Shown here: positions 4,901-37,915 of the stretch, piece by piece
Layout: every line of letters starts with the position of its first letter
Position numbering within the stretch: the first letter of the stretch is position 1
Source of the DNA: a virus
DNA length: 64,000 nucleotides
Direction: 5' to 3' (one strand)
IMG/VR virus record: IMGVR_UViG_3300032770_000013
Location: 1 to 64,000 of that record
Program-made: the position numbers and the translations under genes
The notes under the pieces: generated by a model
What the model was told of the DNA's origin: nothing
The model's input: only the letters and a program-made list of their open reading frames with translations
Databases searched by the model: none

Positions 4901-7117
4901 TTAGTTCGCCGACGAATGCCCGGAGGCGTTGCAGATTACGCTCGCGCCGGTCGTCACATCTGCGGCGTAGAGCCCGTTGCCTGCTGTGGTCCACGTCAGC
5001 GCGTCGACGTCGCTTTCGGTATCGCCGCCACCGGCGGGGGCGATCAGCGTCATCAGGGTCGTGCCGCCACTGCCGTCTTGGATGCTGACCAGCGTAGCGG
5101 TGCCGCTGGAATTATTGCAACTGATGTGAGTCGGGTAGATGTGCTGGGAGGAAACAGCCGCAATGAGCTGCGTGCTCGACGTTCCCGTCATCGCCGCCGT
5201 GGTGCCCTTGACCAGCGTGTGGCTCAGGATCGAGCCGGGGGCGCCGATTGCTCGGCCTTGGTTGTCATATTGCGCGGCGGTTTGCTGGCCGTTAGTCGGC
5301 GACGGCAGTGTGGAGTTGTAGACACCCCCATCAAGGATCGAATCCGCCGCTGCCGTGCCCGCCGCTTTCGTTCCAGTAAGATTGGTCAGATCGACCACGG
5401 CACCGGAGGCAAGAGAACCGGAGGCATAAGCACCGGACGAGACGGCGCCCGAGGCAAAGGCACCGGATGCCACTGCGCCGCTGGCAATCGCTCCAGAAGC
5501 AATCGAAGCACTCGCCGCCTTGATCGCAACGGCGCCCTGGTCACTCGCGATGACGACAGGAGAGCTATTTGCACTCGTTGCAGACCCATTAGCATTCGAA
5601 TTGGTGACATACGCATTGACCGCAGGAACCGCAATTGCGCTCGGTGCCGTACCATAGTTCGAGGTCGCCGACCACGCGACCATGTTGGTGCCGTTGGTCA
5701 AGCCGATGGCGGTGCCGGTCGAGGGGAAGGCCGACCCGAAGCTTGACGACGTGCCGCCAGAACCCCCGCCCGCCTTTACGTTGACCTCAAGATAACCGGC
5801 CGAATCGGTCTGCAACGCAACGCTCTGGCCGTTCGAGGGCGTGACGCCACCGGAATTGTAGACGCCGCCGGCGACCTGCATATTCGTGGGGGCACTTCCA
5901 GCCGCGACGGTGGCAATGCCCCAGGTCGAGATCGTATTCGGATCGACCTTGCCAATGGCAGTCGAGCCGCTCGCTTGTAACGTCGCTTGCACGGCAAGCG
6001 TGCCAGTTCCGACGATGACAGGGTGACCGCTGGAATCGGTGGAGATATTGCGAACGTCCGTGCCGTCAGAGCCGCCGATGAGAACGGGATTGTTGCCGAT
6101 CGCCGATCCGCTGGCTACCTCGCCCGCGACTTGGAGCGCGCCGTTGCCATCAACGTGGGCCATAGCAACGGTGCCGCCCGAGTAGAAGCCAACGGCGAGC
6201 ATATTCGTCGGAATCGCGCTGCTTGTGAGGCCCCAAGTCGCGATGGTGTTTGGATCGACTTTGCCGATGGCGGTGGAACCGCTCGCCTGCAATGTAGCCT
6301 GCACGGCAAATGTACCAGTGCCGACCACAACGGCCTGACCAGACGAATTGGTCGCAAGTGAGCGCGCATCCGTTCCATCCGAACCCGCGATCAGAACCGG
6401 ATTACCTGCAAGTGCAGATCCGCTCGCAGCGGCGCCGGTCGCCAGCACATACCCAAGCCCGCTCGCAACCTTCCAGTTATCCACATTCCCAGATGCCGTG
6501 CCATCAACCGTGCCGCCCATCAGTACCGGAGGATTGGCCGCCGCCGTACCAGCGGCAGTCGGACCATAGACCGCGCCGCCGCCGCCAGATCCACCACCAC
6601 CGCCACCGGCACCAGTAGCCAAGCCGGTGCCACCTGACATCACCACCACATTCGAGGCCGAATCCCCGGCCTGGTTAATGCAATTCAGGTAAGTATTGGA
6701 GCCAACCGTAAAGGCAAACCATGAACTCGGCTGAATGACATCTTCATTGGCAACTGCGGTTCCAGACCCAACCGTCAGCTTGCACGATACCGCCGTAGTG
6801 CCGGTGTTGTAAGCAACAACAACCGCAGGAGATCCGCTCGGTAACGCATGACTGGCCGAGGCGGCACCGGAAGTCACCGTCGCGTAATTGCTCGAGGGAG
6901 CAAACCCACTGACCGAGGCCGAAACCGTAGCGTTGACGCAGAGCTTCCCGTTCGTATCGATCGTTACCGAGCCATAGGATCCGGCCGCATAGGTCGTAGC
7001 GGGACTGCCGCAGGAAGAAAGGATAAATCCCTGCGCTGCTCCCTGCGCAGAGGCACCTCCCATGGAGGCGAGAAGGCCGGCAATAACGAAAGAGAGAGCG
7101 GCAAAAATCCGGATCAT
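4901..7117 (-). CDS. Large A/G/S-rich structural protein with internal repeats
   Basis: 738 aa; duplicated NPVLIxGSDGTD...VQATLQASGSTAIGKVDPNTI unit. Confidence 0.55.
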   Translation of the reverse strand: MIRIFAALSFVIAGLLASMGGASAQGAAQGFILSSCGSPATTYAAGSYGSVTIDTNGKLCVNATVSASVSGFAPSSNYATVTSGAASASHALPSGSPAVVVAYNTGTTAVSCKLTVGSGTAVANEDVIQPSSWFAFTVGSNTYLNCINQAGDSASNVVVMSGGTGLATGAGGGGGGSGGGGAVYGPTAAGTAAANPPVLMGGTVDGTASGNVDNWKVASGLGYVLATGAAASGSALAGNPVLIAGSDGTDARSLATNSSGQAVVVGTGTFAVQATLQASGSTAIGKVDPNTIATWGLTSSAIPTNMLAVGFYSGGTVAMAHVDGNGALQVAGEVASGSAIGNNPVLIGGSDGTDVRNISTDSSGHPVIVGTGTLAVQATLQASGSTAIGKVDPNTISTWGIATVAAGSAPTNMQVAGGVYNSGGVTPSNGQSVALQTDSAGYLEVNVKAGGGSGGTSSSFGSAFPSTGTAIGLTNGTNMVAWSATSNYGTAPSAIAVPAVNAYVTNSNANGSATSANSSPVVIASDQGAVAIKAASASIASGAIASGAVASGAFASGAVSSGAYASGSLASGAVVDLTNLTGTKAAGTAAADSILDGGVYNSTLPSPTNGQQTAAQYDNQGRAIGAPGSILSHTLVKGTTAAMTGTSSTQLIAAVSSQHIYPTHISCNNSSGTATLVSIQDGSGGTTLMTLIAPAGGGDTESDVDALTWTTAGNGLYAADVTTGASVICNASGHSSAN

Positions 7118-18128: not shown

Positions 18129-19046
18129 CTACAATTTCGCCATCGGCACTATGCCAAGCCGATCGAGCGCATTCCCAATGCAAGCGGCTGGCGTCAGAAT
18201 ATCTCTAAACCTCTCAAACTGCTTGGCATACAGCGCCTTCCAGAACGGCTTGTAGGATTCCGCCTCCCGGTAAAACCCGTCCAAGCTATCCGCAAAGCTG
18301 ATGATCTGATTCCAAGGCGCAGCCAATTCATGCGGCTCCGCAATGACCGGGCGTCCAAGGCTTAATGCCGACGCGCAGCGAGAGGACGACACCAGCCCCA
18401 TTTTCTCAAGGATCCGGATTTGCACGATAATCCGCGCACTCTGCATTTCCAGATCACGGGTCTCCTGCGCCGAAGCCGTTGGGTTATGCAAGGAAATCAA
18501 CTTGACCGTCCCGCGCCGACCAAGCTTCCTGAGAATTTTATATCGCCTGTTCGACACTGAGCCATAAAACCCGAAATCATGATCTGGCTGGCGGATTTGC
18601 GGCCGCATCATGCCGGGAGAATAGCCGAGTTCAATCTGCTCTGTCGGTGCATATTGCCCATACCAATGCGCTGTGTTCGGCACTAGAGCTAAGACGGCAT
18701 CGGCATATTTGGCGGCTTCGGGAAAAAGAGCCTGCCGCAAAACCATAAATCGATCGGCAGCATGATTAAAACCAACAAATCCAGGCTCCTCACAAGGCTC
18801 TTCAGTTGCAACAAAGATGAACCGACAATCATGTAATCTGCGCGCCTCTTTAAGCATGGCAATCGAAAGTAAATTAAATCCTTCAAAAATCAGATTTACA
18901 CCATCCTTTCCACGTAGAAATTCATCGTCCGAATGATCTATTTGATGACCTAAAGATCGGAGTTGATGGACAATAATTTGCGATGGGTCTTGTAATGACA
19001 GCCTGCCAATTTGTGAGTGATTAAAAAGATTTAACCGAAAGCGCAA
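18129..19046 (-). CDS. Glycosyltransferase-like protein (GT-B type)
   Basis: DFGFYGS...RR and VSSSRC...RPVIAE motifs; paralog of 53585-54772. Confidence 0.55.
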   Translation of the reverse strand: MRFRLNLFNHSQIGRLSLQDPSQIIVHQLRSLGHQIDHSDDEFLRGKDGVNLIFEGFNLLSIAMLKEARRLHDCRFIFVATEEPCEEPGFVGFNHAADRFMVLRQALFPEAAKYADAVLALVPNTAHWYGQYAPTEQIELGYSPGMMRPQIRQPDHDFGFYGSVSNRRYKILRKLGRRGTVKLISLHNPTASAQETRDLEMQSARIIVQIRILEKMGLVSSSRCASALSLGRPVIAEPHELAAPWNQIISFADSLDGFYREAESYKPFWKALYAKQFERFRDILTPAACIGNALDRLGIVPMAKL

Positions 19047-19048
19047 AA

Positions 19049-19139
19049 TCGCCTCGCCATACCAAACCGGGCCGATGCCAAAACATGCCTTACCTTTGCG
19101 AGCCGGGGCTTACCAAACTCCAGCATGCCGCACCATAAC
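19049..19139 (-). ncRNA. GGY-NN pentamer tract E (putative guide RNA)
   Basis: About 18 units, ending GGCGAGGCGATTTT. Confidence 0.75.
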
Positions 19140-19157
19140 TCAAAGCGATAAAAAAAT

Positions 19158-19254
19158 CCTCGCCGCGCCACACGCTGCCAGACCGTGCCGTGCCTCAGCA
19201 GACCCCGGCTCGCCCCGACAGGCCACGCAAGACCCGGCCGCAGCGTACCATGCC
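19158..19254 (-). ncRNA. GGY-NN pentamer tract D (putative guide RNA)
   Basis: 19 in-phase units, ending GGCGAGGA-T7. Confidence 0.8.
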
Positions 19255-19277
19255 TCCTTCAAAAATCGCCAAAATAT

Positions 19278-19410
19278 CCTCGCCTAATCCAAACCTCACC
19301 CGGCCTTGTCATACCTTGCCACAGCTCACTGAGCCAAGCCGGGCCGCACTTAACCTAACCTAGCCACGCCCCGCGTTGCCAAATCGCGCCCGGGATCGCC
19401 ATGCCCAACC
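19278..19410 (-). ncRNA. GGY-NN pentamer tract C (putative guide RNA)
   Basis: About 26 units, ending GGCGAGGATATTTT. Confidence 0.75.
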
Positions 19411-19421
19411 GCTCCGCAAAC

Positions 19422-20036
19422 CTACTTGAAGTTTACGATTCCAAAGCGGCCGAATGTCGGCCTAAAATCACCGATGCCGATCAAGCGACCAGCACTTTCA
19501 ATCGTTTCGCGCAAGGCATTGTGATCGACGTATTCCGGCAGCATCACGAGAAGATCAAACGTGACCTTCCAGCCGGCGCGCAAGGCAGGCCGCACGCGGT
19601 TGATACCTTGGCGCTGAATCATAACGCGCCGTTTATCCAAATAATCCCAATCCTTTACGCCGAGAGTGGCGAGCGGACTGGTGACGACAATGGCGGCCTT
19701 GAACAGGTCCATTGCGGACTTCCGCGGTGACCGCGGATCTTGCCGGAATTTCGCCGCGTTGATGATTGAGCCGCGAAGATACTCGCCGGGGACACAGATT
19801 TCACCGGCGTCGTTCCGATAGACGTAGGATTCTACGTCATCGGTCTTTTTGCCTTTGGAATTTTTAGCGGCGCGGGCTTTTTCATCGACCGCCTCGCTAT
19901 TCCATCTGTGCATTAAAAGATCGGCGGCCCCTTGAATCGTCACGCGAACCGGATATGGCTCGCTGTGAGAGATGACTTCGTTGCCACCGGAAGTCGGCTC
20001 AGAAATGTGGATAACTTTAGCTTTAGTTGCAGTCAT
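19422..20036 (-). CDS. Stand-alone RAMP/Cas7-like RNA-binding protein (Vipr-like)
   Basis: VTIQG..DLLMH, VPGEYLRGSI, RVRP and C-terminal G-loop GIGDFRPTFGRF; flanked by pentamer tracts. Confidence 0.75.
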   Translation of the reverse strand: MTATKAKVIHISEPTSGGNEVISHSEPYPVRVTIQGAADLLMHRWNSEAVDEKARAAKNSKGKKTDDVESYVYRNDAGEICVPGEYLRGSIINAAKFRQDPRSPRKSAMDLFKAAIVVTSPLATLGVKDWDYLDKRRVMIQRQGINRVRPALRAGWKVTFDLLVMLPEYVDHNALRETIESAGRLIGIGDFRPTFGRFGIVNFK

Positions 20037-20060
20037 TGTATTTGCTCCATTTTGGTTGAT

Positions 20061-20149
20061 GGAGACCTCACCGCACCGATGCTTGCCCTAGCTTGCCCAA
20101 CGCGACCTGACCAAGCCGCACCAAAGCGCGCCGTAAGCAAAAGGTCTCC
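20061..20149 (-). ncRNA. GGY-NN pentamer tract B closed by a GGAGACC/GGTCTCC stem
   Basis: About 14 units inside a 7-bp inverted repeat. Confidence 0.75.
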
Positions 20150-20269
20150 CCCGCGCTGAGCCTGCTAAGCCCGGAACGCGGTTCAGGGGTCACTTTTCAG
20201 CGACACTCAGACACGGGGAAGTTCGTGAGAGGTGCCGCGTTCTTCGCGTTAGCAGCCGCGAATGGAAAA

Positions 20270-20297
20270 ATAATACCGAAAATAAATCGAATGTCTA
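20270..20297 (-). promoter_or_regulatory. Sigma70-like promoter for tract B and the RAMP gene
   Basis: TAGACA-16nt-TATTAT. Confidence 0.5.
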
Positions 20298-20316
20298 GTG
20301 CCATTCACCAGCCCAA

Positions 20317-20332
20317 TGTTTCACGTGAAACA
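20317..20332. promoter_or_regulatory. parS-like ParB binding site
   Basis: Perfect palindrome TGTTTCACGTGAAACA. Confidence 0.7.
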
Positions 20333-20345
20333 TTTTGGTAATGTC

Positions 20346-20464
20346 GAACGGAGCCCGAAGGCCCCGTTCTCCCTTACCGAAACTCACCGCAGCCAACCGG
20401 ACCGGACAAGACCATGCCGAAGCCCACAACGGCAAACCATACCAAGGCCAGCACAAGCCCCACC
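20346..20464 (-). ncRNA. GGY-NN pentamer tract A with 3' hairpin
   Basis: About 18 units then GAACGGGGCC-TTCG-GGCTCCGTTC; TATAAT upstream at 20478-20483. Confidence 0.75.
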
Positions 20465-20517
20465 ACGTGAGGACAACATTATACAGTAATTCGTAACGTT
20501 CCAGTATATTTTCAGCT

Positions 20518-23500
20518 TCATGTTTTGCGATTCTCAACATGAGCGAACGGCTTGGTGGTCTTACCATGTTCAAGCCATTTTTTGAAATCCGGCAACGTCA
20601 TTTGGTGAATTGCGCCGACACGGTCCACTCCTCGTCCATCTGCAAATGCGCGGTGATAGACATTGGTGGCATGCTTGAGCGATGCCGCGCCAAGAATTAT
20701 TTTGTGCTCATCGAACTTCTTAGTGTCGGCGTCAACTTGATCCACGATGTAAACACATTTCGCTCGCGGGTGGTCGCACAAAAATACGTCTAGGTTATCA
20801 CCATCGGCACCATCGTGGCGTTTCAAATATCCGTAGTGGGCTGGAAGCACGCTCCGCCAAGGACGACCATCCTTATCGATGCCGCGACGGATTCCGCCTT
20901 TGCCATTTTCAATGGTGATCTGAAGTCCGAATTTGTGCAGATGGTCCTTTTTGTAATTCCCCGCTGCGATCTGCGCTTTGCTTGGATGCTTTTCGATATT
21001 CCGCACTTCGACTCTTCCCCCATGCGCCCGCTTTGGCGTCAAATTCTCGATTGCCTCATCCTTCGTCTTTCCGGTCGAGAGTAATTCGCCGTCCTTGTCG
21101 TAGACGCCCCATTTATTGAGCGGGATACCGGTAAACTCAGCCGTCAGACCTTGCGGTAATACTCGGCCGCCGCTGGCTCTTGCCTGCGCCTTTTCCTGCT
21201 GAGAGACCGTTGGCCTGCCCTGCAATTCATTCGATATATCGCTGATCCAGTTATCTTTTTGACCAGTGACGTTCATCATGAAGTTGTCGTACAGCTTTTG
21301 CGGTGTTGATTCGCTGCGCGCATCCTCCACGTTGGTCGACGGTCGAAAGTCCGCGTATGGGTCTGGTGCCGGACCGCCATCAGCTCGCTCAATTCTCTCG
21401 CGCGGCCCTATTGGATCGCTTGGATCGACGTCGGCTGTTTGCCGAGCCATCTGCCATTCGGCGTTGGATTGAGATTCGGGATGATCGTCTGGAGCGCAGA
21501 TAGAGCCGCCTTGGGCCATCCCTTGTGTATTGGTCTTTGCGAATGGATCGTAATCTACGGGAACGGTTTGGAAATGAGATGCACCCCCTGCAACCAATCC
21601 GGCGAGGCCGTATTTCTTGATGATGTCGATCAGCTTGTCGTTGAAGACGACGTAATTTCTGGTCGGATTCTCATATGAATTTATCTGCGCCTGAAGGTTT
21701 TTGATCACGCCTTCATCACCGCGCGCTTGGGCTTTTTCTAAAGCTGTCCGCAGTGCCTGCAATTGAGTCGGTGTCGCGCGAGAGCCTTGGTCTAGATATT
21801 TGATACCGGGGATTCCAGCATCGCGAAGTTGCTGCGCCACGCGCTGAACATCGGTGTGACCTTGGCCCGGCGTATGCAGACTGATTTCATTGTTGCGATA
21901 AATCTGCTCGCCGGTCTGATTCGCGTGCGCTTCTGGATGCGCGAGCCAAGCGTCTTTTAATTTTTGCTGGACAGCCGGACTCTGCTCACTCAGCGGCTTA
22001 TCCCAATCAAGGAAATGCTCGGGATCGGCGTTGATGTTGACTTCGTAGAGATTGCCAGCCTTTGATGGGTATGGTATTTCACTGCGAACATGAAGATCGC
22101 CCTTATCTGCGCTTCTTGCGGCAAGAGCTTCCTCAAGCATCGCAGTGCTTTGAGGCCCAATCAGCGGACGTTTTGCAGTCGCGAGTGCCACGTAAGGGGC
22201 CAGCATATCGACGGCCTTAACGCGGCTGGCTACAAGATTATTCGCGTTGGTAGGAAGCAAGTCTACGAGCATAGATGGATTATTGAGCAAAGCATCGGAC
22301 GTAAACTCCTTCCCACCGAGCATGTGCATCACATCAACGGGAAGAAGTCGGACAACCGCCTTTCCAATCTCCGGGTCTTGGAGGAGTCCACGCATCACCG
22401 GGAGCACGTCGCTCCTACTTTCGACATCGAGCGAGCGAAAGCCCTTTACGAGCAGGGGATTGGATACCGCAAACTTGCCGAAATTTTCGGCGTGGCTCGC
22501 CAAAACATCAGAGGGTGCTTCATACGTAGGGGCTGGCATGTTACCGGCCGTACCCGCCGTTCTATAACTCTCGGCAGTTGATGGATGCTCAGCCAGATAA
22601 ATTCCATGCCCATAAGCCTGTGCGCCTTCGCCGGTGCCGATCTTCGATAGATCGAACTTGTCGAAGTCGTAGGGGCTGCCGTGATAGGCGCGGATGCCTT
22701 GGGGTTGTGGAACTTCGGACAACAAAGGATGAATGAGCTTATCGCTTCCGACATTAGCGGGATCAAACGAATCAAAACGTGATCGCACTTGGCTCGGTTC
22801 AAAGACCATGATGTGCGGACGACCCGGCGTTCCAGTTATCTCCTTCTGCGGATCGCCAATGATCGCATCATATCCAGCGTCCCGAATGGCCTGAGCCTTT
22901 AGCGCCACAGGTGTGTCTTGACCAAGGCCGTGATAAAAAAGCGTGCTGCCGGTCCAGTATTTCAGCGGGCCACCTTCGATCATCTTTTTGGCCTGCTCGG
23001 TGCGGCCGGCGGCTTTCAAAACTTCTGCCGCTTGCTCGGCAGTTATCGGCTGGTCCATGCGAAACGGATTCTGCACTTTGAGCTTGACGGGCATGACGCG
23101 CGGAGTATCGCCGGACCAGGCGCCAGTGTGCTTATTGGCAAATTCAGCGGACGGCGTGAAATAAAAGTTGCCCCCGTATTGTATGTTGTCGCGGACCTTC
23201 ATCGGATCGAAAGCTTCGAACTCCTGCGAGCCAGTCCCGTGGAATGCGTCAATCGTCCAACCTTGCTGTGCGGCTCGCGCCATCCGGCTTGCTTCATCCA
23301 TTGGGAGCGCAGCGCGAGCGGCAGCAGTTAATTCCGGCGCAACCTTTTCGGCCGCCCCCATCGCCACCTTGGCTGCCCGCATTTCCGGCGTCAGCAACCC
23401 GGCAGCCGACATCAGCGCGAAGTTCTGCGCTTCATCGGGCGTCATCTGACCACGCAACGCGCTGATTGCATCATTGACGCCAGTCACATCGCCAGCAACA

Positions 23501-23649
23501 TTGGCGACCTTCCCGGGCATTGATGCTATATCTTGCCCTACAGTCGGTGGCGCAATTGTCTGCCCCGGCTTGGCGACTGGCCCTACCGCGAACGGATCAT
23601 GATCGACCGGAACGAGGTCATAATCAGGCTGCAATTGATCGTCGGGCAC
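20518..23649 (-). CDS. Polyvalent ejected protein: two ADP-ribosyltransferase-like domains and a C-terminal pyrophosphatase-like domain
   Basis: AFHGT..YFTP; AYHGSPYDFDKFD..GHGIYLAE; GNYKK..ITIEN..HYGY..GADGD..FDEHK. Confidence 0.7.
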   Translation of the reverse strand: MPDDQLQPDYDLVPVDHDPFAVGPVAKPGQTIAPPTVGQDIASMPGKVANVAGDVTGVNDAISALRGQMTPDEAQNFALMSAAGLLTPEMRAAKVAMGAAEKVAPELTAAARAALPMDEASRMARAAQQGWTIDAFHGTGSQEFEAFDPMKVRDNIQYGGNFYFTPSAEFANKHTGAWSGDTPRVMPVKLKVQNPFRMDQPITAEQAAEVLKAAGRTEQAKKMIEGGPLKYWTGSTLFYHGLGQDTPVALKAQAIRDAGYDAIIGDPQKEITGTPGRPHIMVFEPSQVRSRFDSFDPANVGSDKLIHPLLSEVPQPQGIRAYHGSPYDFDKFDLSKIGTGEGAQAYGHGIYLAEHPSTAESYRTAGTAGNMPAPTYEAPSDVLASHAENFGKFAVSNPLLVKGFRSLDVESRSDVLPVMRGLLQDPEIGKAVVRLLPVDVMHMLGGKEFTSDALLNNPSMLVDLLPTNANNLVASRVKAVDMLAPYVALATAKRPLIGPQSTAMLEEALAARSADKGDLHVRSEIPYPSKAGNLYEVNINADPEHFLDWDKPLSEQSPAVQQKLKDAWLAHPEAHANQTGEQIYRNNEISLHTPGQGHTDVQRVAQQLRDAGIPGIKYLDQGSRATPTQLQALRTALEKAQARGDEGVIKNLQAQINSYENPTRNYVVFNDKLIDIIKKYGLAGLVAGGASHFQTVPVDYDPFAKTNTQGMAQGGSICAPDDHPESQSNAEWQMARQTADVDPSDPIGPRERIERADGGPAPDPYADFRPSTNVEDARSESTPQKLYDNFMMNVTGQKDNWISDISNELQGRPTVSQQEKAQARASGGRVLPQGLTAEFTGIPLNKWGVYDKDGELLSTGKTKDEAIENLTPKRAHGGRVEVRNIEKHPSKAQIAAGNYKKDHLHKFGLQITIENGKGGIRRGIDKDGRPWRSVLPAHYGYLKRHDGADGDNLDVFLCDHPRAKCVYIVDQVDADTKKFDEHKIILGAASLKHATNVYHRAFADGRGVDRVGAIHQMTLPDFKKWLEHGKTTKPFAHVENRKT
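22090..22581 (+). CDS. HNH endonuclease with zinc finger and HTH, nested antisense within the polyvalent gene
   Basis: CASC..FCSREC; YEHR..VHHINGKKSDNRLSNL; C-terminal HTH. Confidence 0.8.
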   Translation: MKIALICASCGKSFLKHRSALRPNQRTFCSRECHVRGQHIDGLNAAGYKIIRVGRKQVYEHRWIIEQSIGRKLLPTEHVHHINGKKSDNRLSNLRVLEESTHHREHVAPTFDIERAKALYEQGIGYRKLAEIFGVARQNIRGCFIRRGWHVTGRTRRSITLGS

Positions 23650-37800: not shown

Positions 37801-37915
37801 GAAAGGCCGCCACGTTAGCGACGACCTTTCCACCCCTATCAGACCGGAACTCACCAGAACTCACCCGAGCTAACCATAACCGACCTGATCTCACCGCATC
37901 TCGTCTCACCATAAC
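37801..37915 (-). ncRNA. GNY-NN pentamer tract F with 3' hairpin (putative guide RNA)
   Basis: 17 in-phase units then GAAAGGTCGTC/GGCGGCCTTTC stem. Confidence 0.75.

Follow-up and report, generated by a model that had tools for sequence, protein, structure and literature searches.

A Predicted VIPR Guide in a Wetland Phage Decodes to a Conserved Motif of Polyvalent Protein Genes

The DNA analysed here (hereafter, the window) is a stretch of 64,000 nucleotides, comprising positions 1 to 64,000 of the IMG/VR virus record IMGVR_UViG_3300032770_000013. Judged from its sequence, it carries a VIPR (Viral Interference Programmable Repeat) system, and a short repeat tract next to a polyvalent protein gene, tract A, is one of the vrRNA genes of this system. 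It appears probable that tract A is a working vrRNA, which would direct the Vipr protein to a motif in the polyvalent genes of rival phages and block transcription there, the resident copy being spared by mismatches.

VIPR is an RNA-guided gene silencing system first described in 2026 (10.64898/2026.04.26.720920, 10.64898/2026.04.26.720927, 10.64898/2026.10.15.759431), in which a RAMP protein carried by phages forms polymers along vrRNAs that consist of GGY/NN units (2026 VIPR preprints). The NN pairs of these units constitute the guide, successive pairs being separated by one skipped base on the target, and the natural targets have this skipped base at the wobble position of the codon (10.64898/2026.04.26.720920). 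Natural targets were called at an NN match of at least 80% without gaps, and no self target as high as this was reported (2026 VIPR preprints). Some guides of SUSP1-family phages are aimed at the VIPR genes of rivals, with a self-match lower than the rival-match (10.64898/2026.10.15.759431). The 2026 preprints already describe systems of this kind, together with their decoding rule and the principle of hitting a rival while sparing self.

Identification of the VIPR Locus

The vipr gene (19422-20036, minus strand; phrog_4652) encodes a 204-aa protein that is predicted to be a RAMP-type binder of GGY units. No Pfam family was assigned to this ORF by a Pfam search, while PDB entry 36pp_D ('SUSP1 Vipr protein') was matched with the single sequence (E = 2e-7) and with a profile of eight homologs (E = 3.4e-10, covering 28-196 of 200 positions). 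In Vipr, contact with GGY is made by a G-rich loop and a thumb; the G-loop of the present protein, GIGDFRPTFGRF, aligns to GVGDWRPRFGRF of SUSP1 Vipr. The residues H17, R138, D177, W178, and R179, which contact the GGY bases in SUSP1 Vipr (2026 VIPR preprints), correspond here to H43, R149, D190, F191, and R192, all of which are invariant in an alignment of eight Vipr homologs (alignment A1, 57-93% identity). An AlphaFold2 model built from an eight-sequence alignment (pLDDT 41) was too poor for fold comparison.

Five GGY/NN tracts of 12-26 units, above the minimum of 4 tandem units taken for a vrRNA gene, lie on both sides of vipr and on the strand of the gene. They keep a strict 5-nt period, and in each unit a GG-pyrimidine triplet is nearly constant while the next two bases are variable. 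A scan of the 95,988-bp phage genome for GG phasing at period 5 placed every such tract within 19049-20464 on the minus strand; the plus strand has none. Such tracts also flank the gene of Vipr homologs (57-93% identity) in 10 IMG/VR loci and in phage DSL-LC04. Therefore, given the homology to Vipr, the invariant contact residues, and the tract-flanked homologs, the locus is assigned as a VIPR system and tract A as a vrRNA gene within it.

No recognisable vap gene adjoins vipr, and the gene downstream of the DSL-LC04 homolog has no homolog in this phage. The lack of vap was treated as non-defining because VIPR loci are stated in the preprint to 'typically' carry it. The next ORF in this phage (18129-19046) has no Pfam family and showed weak matches to Csa3/CARF-HTH proteins (E about 0.01). 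The vipr homolog of DSL-LC04 is annotated as an 'HTH regulator'.

Two other readings of the repeats were considered and dropped. A TRAP-like protein-binding leader was set aside since the ORF matches SUSP1 Vipr and the variable NN positions, as seen for guide B (26/28), encode matches to genes. Two-tier G-quadruplex tracts were discarded on the same SUSP1 Vipr match and on the 26/28 agreement of guide B with foreign vipr genes.

Anatomy of Tract A

Tract A (20374-20463, minus strand) was delimited by register analysis as 18 five-nucleotide units in a single register. Read from 20463 to 20374 on the minus strand, the units, with NN as the guide part, are GTGGG GCTTG TGCTG GCCTT GGTAT GGTTT GCCGT TGTGG GCTTC GGCAT GGTCT TGTCC GGTCC GGTTG GCTGC GGTGA GTTTC GGTAA. 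Nine of these have the canonical GGY and the other nine carry GCY, TGY, or GTY variants; the 5-nt register runs without a break over 18-19 units. The tract was also recovered by an independent GGY caller. Tandem Repeats Finder did not report the GGY/NN tracts, and an Rfam search of 19000-22000 at permissive thresholds yielded nothing relevant. The locus was found only in the source DNA run, a wetland metagenome.

Both flanking signals named in the first-pass annotation are present. A TATAAT hexamer, possibly a -10 box, lies upstream of the tract at 20483-20478 (minus strand) but lacks a usable -35 box, and a sigma-70 consensus scan called no promoter for tract A because no -35 box stands at 16-18 nt. 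The stop codon of the polyvalent gene is located at 20518-20520, and therefore read-through transcription would be an alternative source of tract A RNA. Downstream, the tract is followed by a 3′ tail hairpin with a UUCG tetraloop (GAACGGGGCC-UUCG-GGCUCCGUUC, 20369-20346, minus strand), which is present in both the MFE and the centroid folds of 20335-20472 (minus strand; z = -2.4) and dominates the predicted structure. This tail is a plain hairpin and not the pseudoknot of SUSP1, a feature that counts against a working guide A.

Decoding of Guide A and the Resident Polyvalent Gene

For decoding, the reverse-complemented NN pairs were taken as the first two bases of codons, with one skipped base between pairs. 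In strict register, the target string of guide A is TT GA TC GC CA GG GG AG AT GA CC AC AA AT AA CA CA CC, and its 18 units decode to [F/L][D/E]S-AHGGRIEPTNINH[H/Q]P, i.e., [F/L][D/E]S-A-H-G-G-R-I-E-P-T-N-I-N-H-[H/Q]-P.

The gene upstream of tract A (20518-23649, minus strand) encodes a polyvalent protein of 1043 aa with ART-PolyVal (Pfam PF18760, 9e-20) and C-terminal InPase (PF18823, 1.6e-41) domains. Its site PKRAHGGRVEVRNIEKHP (20984-21036, minus strand; 15-unit core 20984-21027), which encodes PKR-AHGGRVEVRNIEKHP in frame, is partly matched by guide A, with the skipped base at the wobble position. Agreement in strict register and codon frame amounts to 23/30 informative positions over 15 units and 24/36 over 18, so that the resident copy differs at 7/30 (12/36) positions. 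Units 8 and 9, which are adjacent and lie in the middle of the duplex, are fully mismatched (0/4). Across both strands of the 96-kb genome, this site is the best match of guide A (ungapped local score 16 vs. 12 for the next best). Other skip rules performed less well, with best scores of 14 for no skipped base and 13 for two compared with 16 for one, and a 3-nt skip recovered just tract A itself. The resemblance to the upstream polyvalent gene that had been proposed in the first-pass annotation was thus borne out. The count of about 22/30 given there was reproduced using its own parse, which allowed one extra nucleotide in the tract; this parse is unnecessary and was rejected, as the unbroken 5-nt register scores higher (23/30 vs. 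22/30).

A comparison with shuffled controls was carried out genome-wide on both strands, by means of base shuffles, unit-order shuffles, and Markov surrogate genomes. Over 15 units, a score of at least 23 was reached by 1/1000 base shuffles, 0/1000 unit-order shuffles, and 0/150 surrogate genomes, while over 18 units a score of at least 24 was reached by 22/1000, 35/1000, and 6/150, respectively. The local score of 16 at the resident site was reached by 8/500 shuffles. As far as sequence comparison can tell, the match between guide A and the polyvalent gene is one of homology and lies above chance. On the other hand, with a self-match range of 64-77% (67% with 18 units and 77% with 15), the resident match is below target grade by the field's own criterion, as is expected for a resident gene.

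The Family Motif and Distant Relatives

Among about 360 proteins carrying the module, the site corresponds to the family motif R-A-[H/A]-G-G-R-V-x-[A/P]-x-N-I-N-H-x-P-[T/S]-E-A-Q-K on the N-terminal border of the InPase domain as defined by Pfam. At P8, N12, and H13, guide A decodes to the family consensus (RAHGGRVxPxNINHxP), whereas the residues of the resident gene at these positions are the unusual V, E, and K. The same site was also the top genome-wide match of guide A in IMGVR_UViG_3300035696_000020 (G007), a complete 103.9-kb phage that lacks vipr and has about 32 of 88 ORFs in common with this phage at about 48% identity. In that phage, the homologous polyvalent site, PKRASGGRVEPANINHNP, has a local score of 18 against 12 for the next match and agrees with guide A at 24/30 positions (reached by 0/1000 shuffles) or 25/36 (4-5/1000 shuffles). 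In a relative whose Vipr is 68% identical (G006), the top match was again the same polyvalent site, with 22/36 positions and no significance. Since the same site is found in G007, the decode agrees with the family consensus, and the codon frame is kept throughout, the site match is assigned to homology with the polyvalent family at the level of sequence. None of the four relatives closest in Vipr (G001-G004) carries an InPase gene within the sequence examined. Tract A is likewise absent from the closest Vipr relatives, including loci with 93%-identical Vipr, and lies outside the conserved promoter-B-vipr cassette.

Search for an External Target

Scans of the large collections (IMG/VR, JGI metagenomes, and GTDB genomes) relied on exact gapped-pattern seeds. 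The 11-unit core of guide A gave no hit in any of the three, and sub-blocks of 8-9 units gave chance seeds only, with the remaining units unmatched. A scan of IMG/VR with the family-motif pattern retrieved nine polyvalent sites, of which the best (L065) agrees with guide A at 25/30 positions (26/36) and three at 24/30, the value of G007, L067, and L068; because the pattern had fixed 16 positions beforehand, L065, L067, and L068 carry no independent statistical weight. Among the approximately 360 family proteins, the best compatibility with the guide A decode was 12/15 codons. Cultured phages gave no tblastn match to the decoded peptide of 23 aa; with the domain as query, 389 phages were recovered, all with less than 60% identity and most not covering the site.

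Accordingly, no external target of at least 90% was found in the exact-seed scans of IMG/VR, JGI metagenomes, and GTDB or among the family proteins, and the best external match stands at 83% over 15 units and 72% over 18. Distant polyvalent homologs match guide A at 80-83% when 15 units are counted and at 69-72% with 18; the published gapless criterion of at least 80% is therefore passed only if the three 3′-most units are left out. The first-pass annotation had proposed that the guide targets the left-flank gene of related phages. This idea gains from the same site being the top match in G007 (24/30), from the consensus agreement, and from the precedent of guide B, whereas the near-perfect external target that a gapped-pattern search might have retrieved was not found with exact seeds on the large collections, the best being the 25/30 (26/36) of L065.

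Guide B and Tracts C-E

Tract B (20063-20132, minus strand; 14 units) lies in the vipr leader, and its tail is a long-range stem. Its RNA is predicted to be an anti-vipr guide against relatives. It agrees with the vipr genes of two relatives, L006 (4094-4134) and G006 (5073-5113), at 26/28 positions (25/26 over 13 units), in frame with the peptide SADFLFHRWNA, while agreement with the phage's own vipr is 18/26 (69%). The Vipr of L006 is 81% identical to that of this phage. The 26/28 match in the vipr genes of relatives indicates that the 1-nt-skip rule applies at this locus. A promoter-like site for tract B and vipr, TAGACA-16-TATTAT (20270-20297, minus strand), was called by consensus scan with 10/12 matches. 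From this site on, the promoter-B-vipr cassette has 86% nucleotide homology to another IMG/VR locus (L005), and the flanks are unrelated.

vrRNAs C (19291-19410), D (19160-19254), and E (19049-19139), all on the minus strand, each end in GGYGAGG and a U-run. The best self-match of tract E (18862-18911) is in the ORF just downstream, with a local score of 15 that was reached by 13-37 of 500 shuffles, which is weakly in line with guides adjoining the genes that they partly match. Guides C and D have no significant match in this genome or in the relatives' loci compared. By the precedent of guide B, the guides of this phage appear to be aimed at rivals' alleles of genes within or adjoining the locus, with self spared at about 69%; the 18-unit self-match of tract A (67%) is of much the same size.

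Proposed Mechanism and Alternative Explanations

By analogy with SUSP1, Vipr protomers would line up on the vrRNA, one per 5-nt unit, each holding the GGY bases and presenting the NN pair. The resulting filament would then pair with DNA reading NNx, NNx, and so on, and transcription would be blocked at that point. In the case of guide A, the NN code agrees, in codon register, with the motif RA-H-G-G-R-V/I-x-P-x-N-I-N-H-x-P at the N-terminal edge of the InPase module. As this is a conserved motif, the most likely aim of guide A is the polyvalent gene in competitors from the same broad phage group, and the resident copy is probably spared. We infer that the guide A transcript is expressed, loaded, and silencing, and likewise what its real target is. 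A more far-reaching version, which we consider doubtful, is that guide A is consensus-directed and broad-spectrum, acting against the most conserved InPase-edge motif of polyvalent proteins, from which the resident gene would have escaped by changing P/A to V, N to E, and H to K; together with B and E, each vrRNA would then stand beside a gene whose foreign alleles it silences.

Several observations on tract A could be those of a decaying guide. Half of its units (9/18) lack the canonical GGY, it has no -35 box, it is located outside the conserved promoter-B-vipr cassette and is missing from loci with 93%-identical Vipr, and a target of at least 90% occurs in no collection scanned. All this would fit a relic that was once a vrRNA against a polyvalent allele and is no longer loaded by Vipr or silencing, with vestigial matches. 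Such decay is nevertheless unlikely, as the hairpin is intact and all 18-19 units keep to the 5-nt register, working vrRNAs are often internally degenerate with related consensus units (VIPR preprint), and neutral decay would wear away an in-frame family motif such as the NN code still spells across 15 consecutive codons. The resident site, which is the best match in the genome, is located on the same strand only some 520 bp upstream, and at 23/30 (77%) falls just under the working threshold of 80%. It could point to self-regulation, with vrRNA A binding 20984-21036 despite the mismatches and tuning its own operon or the downstream VIPR locus. We regard this as quite improbable. Published VIPR loci have no self matches of at least 80%, and their self-scores are systematically lower than the rival scores; the two adjacent units 8 and 9 are fully mismatched in mid-duplex; the site of a distant relative is matched better than the resident one; and guide B is likewise lower on self.

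It could also be argued that the NN string merely resembles a neighbouring gene by chance, given that P for the 18-unit self-match is only about 0.02-0.04 and that the neighbouring genes were the first to be inspected in the first-pass annotation. This explanation has very little to recommend it, since only 0-1 of 1000 shuffles equalled the 15-unit match, G007, as an independent genome, has the same top site at 0/1000, guide A follows the family consensus at residues in which the resident gene departs from it, and the match is in codon frame. A working vrRNA directed at rivals' polyvalent genes is therefore the reading that we prefer.

Implications

Polyvalent proteins are anti-defence proteins that are delivered with the virion and used by phages against host defences. 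If the predicted target of guide A is true, VIPR would disarm a rival's anti-defence arsenal, going beyond regulators, satellites, and VIPR genes. The new elements here are this predicted target class, the polyvalent/InPase gene, and the arrangement in which A, B, and possibly E adjoin genes that they partly match. If each vrRNA indeed adjoins the gene that it silences in others, new guides may arise from, or co-evolve with, adjacent genes. In addition, guide A and the resident site form a natural test pair for the mismatch tolerance of the gapped code, and guide B has near-perfect targets in the vipr genes of two rival phages. The discovery of VIPR is months old, and its natural targets have so far come mainly from E. 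coli and Pseudomonas elements; the present 96-kb wetland phage provides a clear environmental example in which the tail is a simple hairpin, the tracts are long, and no vap is apparent. The main text of 10.64898/2026.04.26.720920 makes no mention of a polyvalent or InPase gene as a VIPR target (term search of that text).

Comparison with Known Systems

The closest counterpart is the Type II VIPR of Escherichia phage SUSP1. Both systems have a Vipr homolog with conserved GGY-contact residues, tracts of about 100 nt made of YNNGG units on both sides of vipr and on the same strand, predicted pairing by the 1-nt-skip rule in codon frame, and self-matches below 80%. However, the two Vipr proteins are only 20-30% identical outside the C-terminal half, the tracts are longer here (12-26 vs. 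9-16 units), and the tails, a pseudoknot in SUSP1, here take three forms, namely a hairpin with a UUCG loop in A, a long-range stem in B, and GGYGAGG with a U-run in C-E. In addition, unlike in SUSP1, no recognisable vap lies beside vipr in this phage, the next ORF being glycosyltransferase-like.

The rival-directed vrRNAs of SUSP1-family phages (10.64898/2026.10.15.759431) are similar to guide B, which is predicted to act on early vipr codons of two relatives (26/28), and to guide A, which has a low self-match and a better match in a relative, on a gene flanking the locus. The differences are that this phage keeps its own vipr and that the host and the phage group (a 96-kb wetland metagenome phage) are different.

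Class 1 CRISPR crRNA-Cas7 filaments resemble VIPR in that a RAMP protein is polymerised along a guide RNA, with its thumb flipping out bases at regular intervals. In VIPR, only 2 bases of each 5-nt unit pair and the target period is 3 nt, compared with 5 pairing bases per 6-nt unit in Class 1 CRISPR, and VIPR has no repeat-spacer array, no cas1/cas2, and no PAM (2026 VIPR preprints).

A likeness to TRAP-type binding also exists, in that the leader RNA preceding the gene carries triplets repeated roughly every 5 nt. TRAP-type proteins bind (G/U)AG repeats spaced by 2-3 nt. In contrast to such leaders, the neighbouring ORF here encodes a homolog of Vipr, and the variable NN positions contain information that matches genes (26/28 for guide B), which would not be expected of a repeat serving protein binding alone.

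The promoter-B-vipr block and guide B

The core of this RNA-guided silencing system, judged from sequence comparison, behaves as a mobile cassette, because the promoter-B-vipr block (window 19450-20268) shares 86% nucleotide identity with positions 3768-4587 of L005, an IMG/VR contig carrying a vipr homolog, while the genes flanking the block there are unrelated to those of the window. The vrRNA arrays located downstream of vipr are also completely different between the two.

Within this block, vrRNA B (20063-20132, minus strand) occupies the vipr leader. In each of two different related phages it matches the vipr gene, in codon frame, at 26 of 28 informative positions (L006:4094-4134 and G006:C1:5073-5113), where the encoded peptide is SADFLFHRWNA. 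Only 18 of 26 positions match in the phage's own vipr. The matched stretch covers the codon of the His that serves as the G1 contact in SUSP1 Vipr. These matches point clearly to vrRNA B as a natural anti-vipr guide.

Guides A and E and the adjacent genes

The resident polyvalent protein departs from its family (P0003-P0362) at 20984-21036 (minus strand), the stretch partly matched by guide A, having NIEK in place of NINH in an otherwise strong motif, and V in place of P/A. These departures fall exactly at the codons that would otherwise pair with guide A, and could reflect selection for escape from the phage's own guide.

For guide E (tract E, 19049-19139), the top match genome-wide is 18862-18911 (minus strand), with an ungapped local score of 15 that was reached by 13-37 of 500 shuffled guides. 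It falls inside the ORF directly downstream of the tract (18129-19046), whose C-terminal half is glycosyltransferase-like and for which no homolog was found among the relatives compared.

Other repeats in the window

A perfect 20-bp palindrome, AATGTTTCACGTGAAACATT, lies at 20315-20334, with the tract A hairpin on one side and the vipr promoter on the other. Its 16-bp core matches the chromosomal ParB parS consensus; no parAB genes were seen among the ORFs scanned. The GGY caller also flagged a period-10 repeat (GGTGA GAYNN ...) in a coding region at 37841-37910 (minus strand), which Tandem Repeats Finder reported as a 10-nt repeat and which is probably a coding repeat rather than a vrRNA.

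A VIPR locus in phage DSL-LC04

The published phage DSL-LC04 (OR003939.1) has, on sequence grounds, an unannotated VIPR locus at 5720-6650 (L001). A Vipr homolog with 58% identity is present there under the annotation 'helix-turn-helix transcriptional regulator', and its gene is preceded by three GGY/NN tracts. One of these lies within a long-range stem, and a terminator-like hairpin, CCCCACGTTGGGG-T5, comes after the last.
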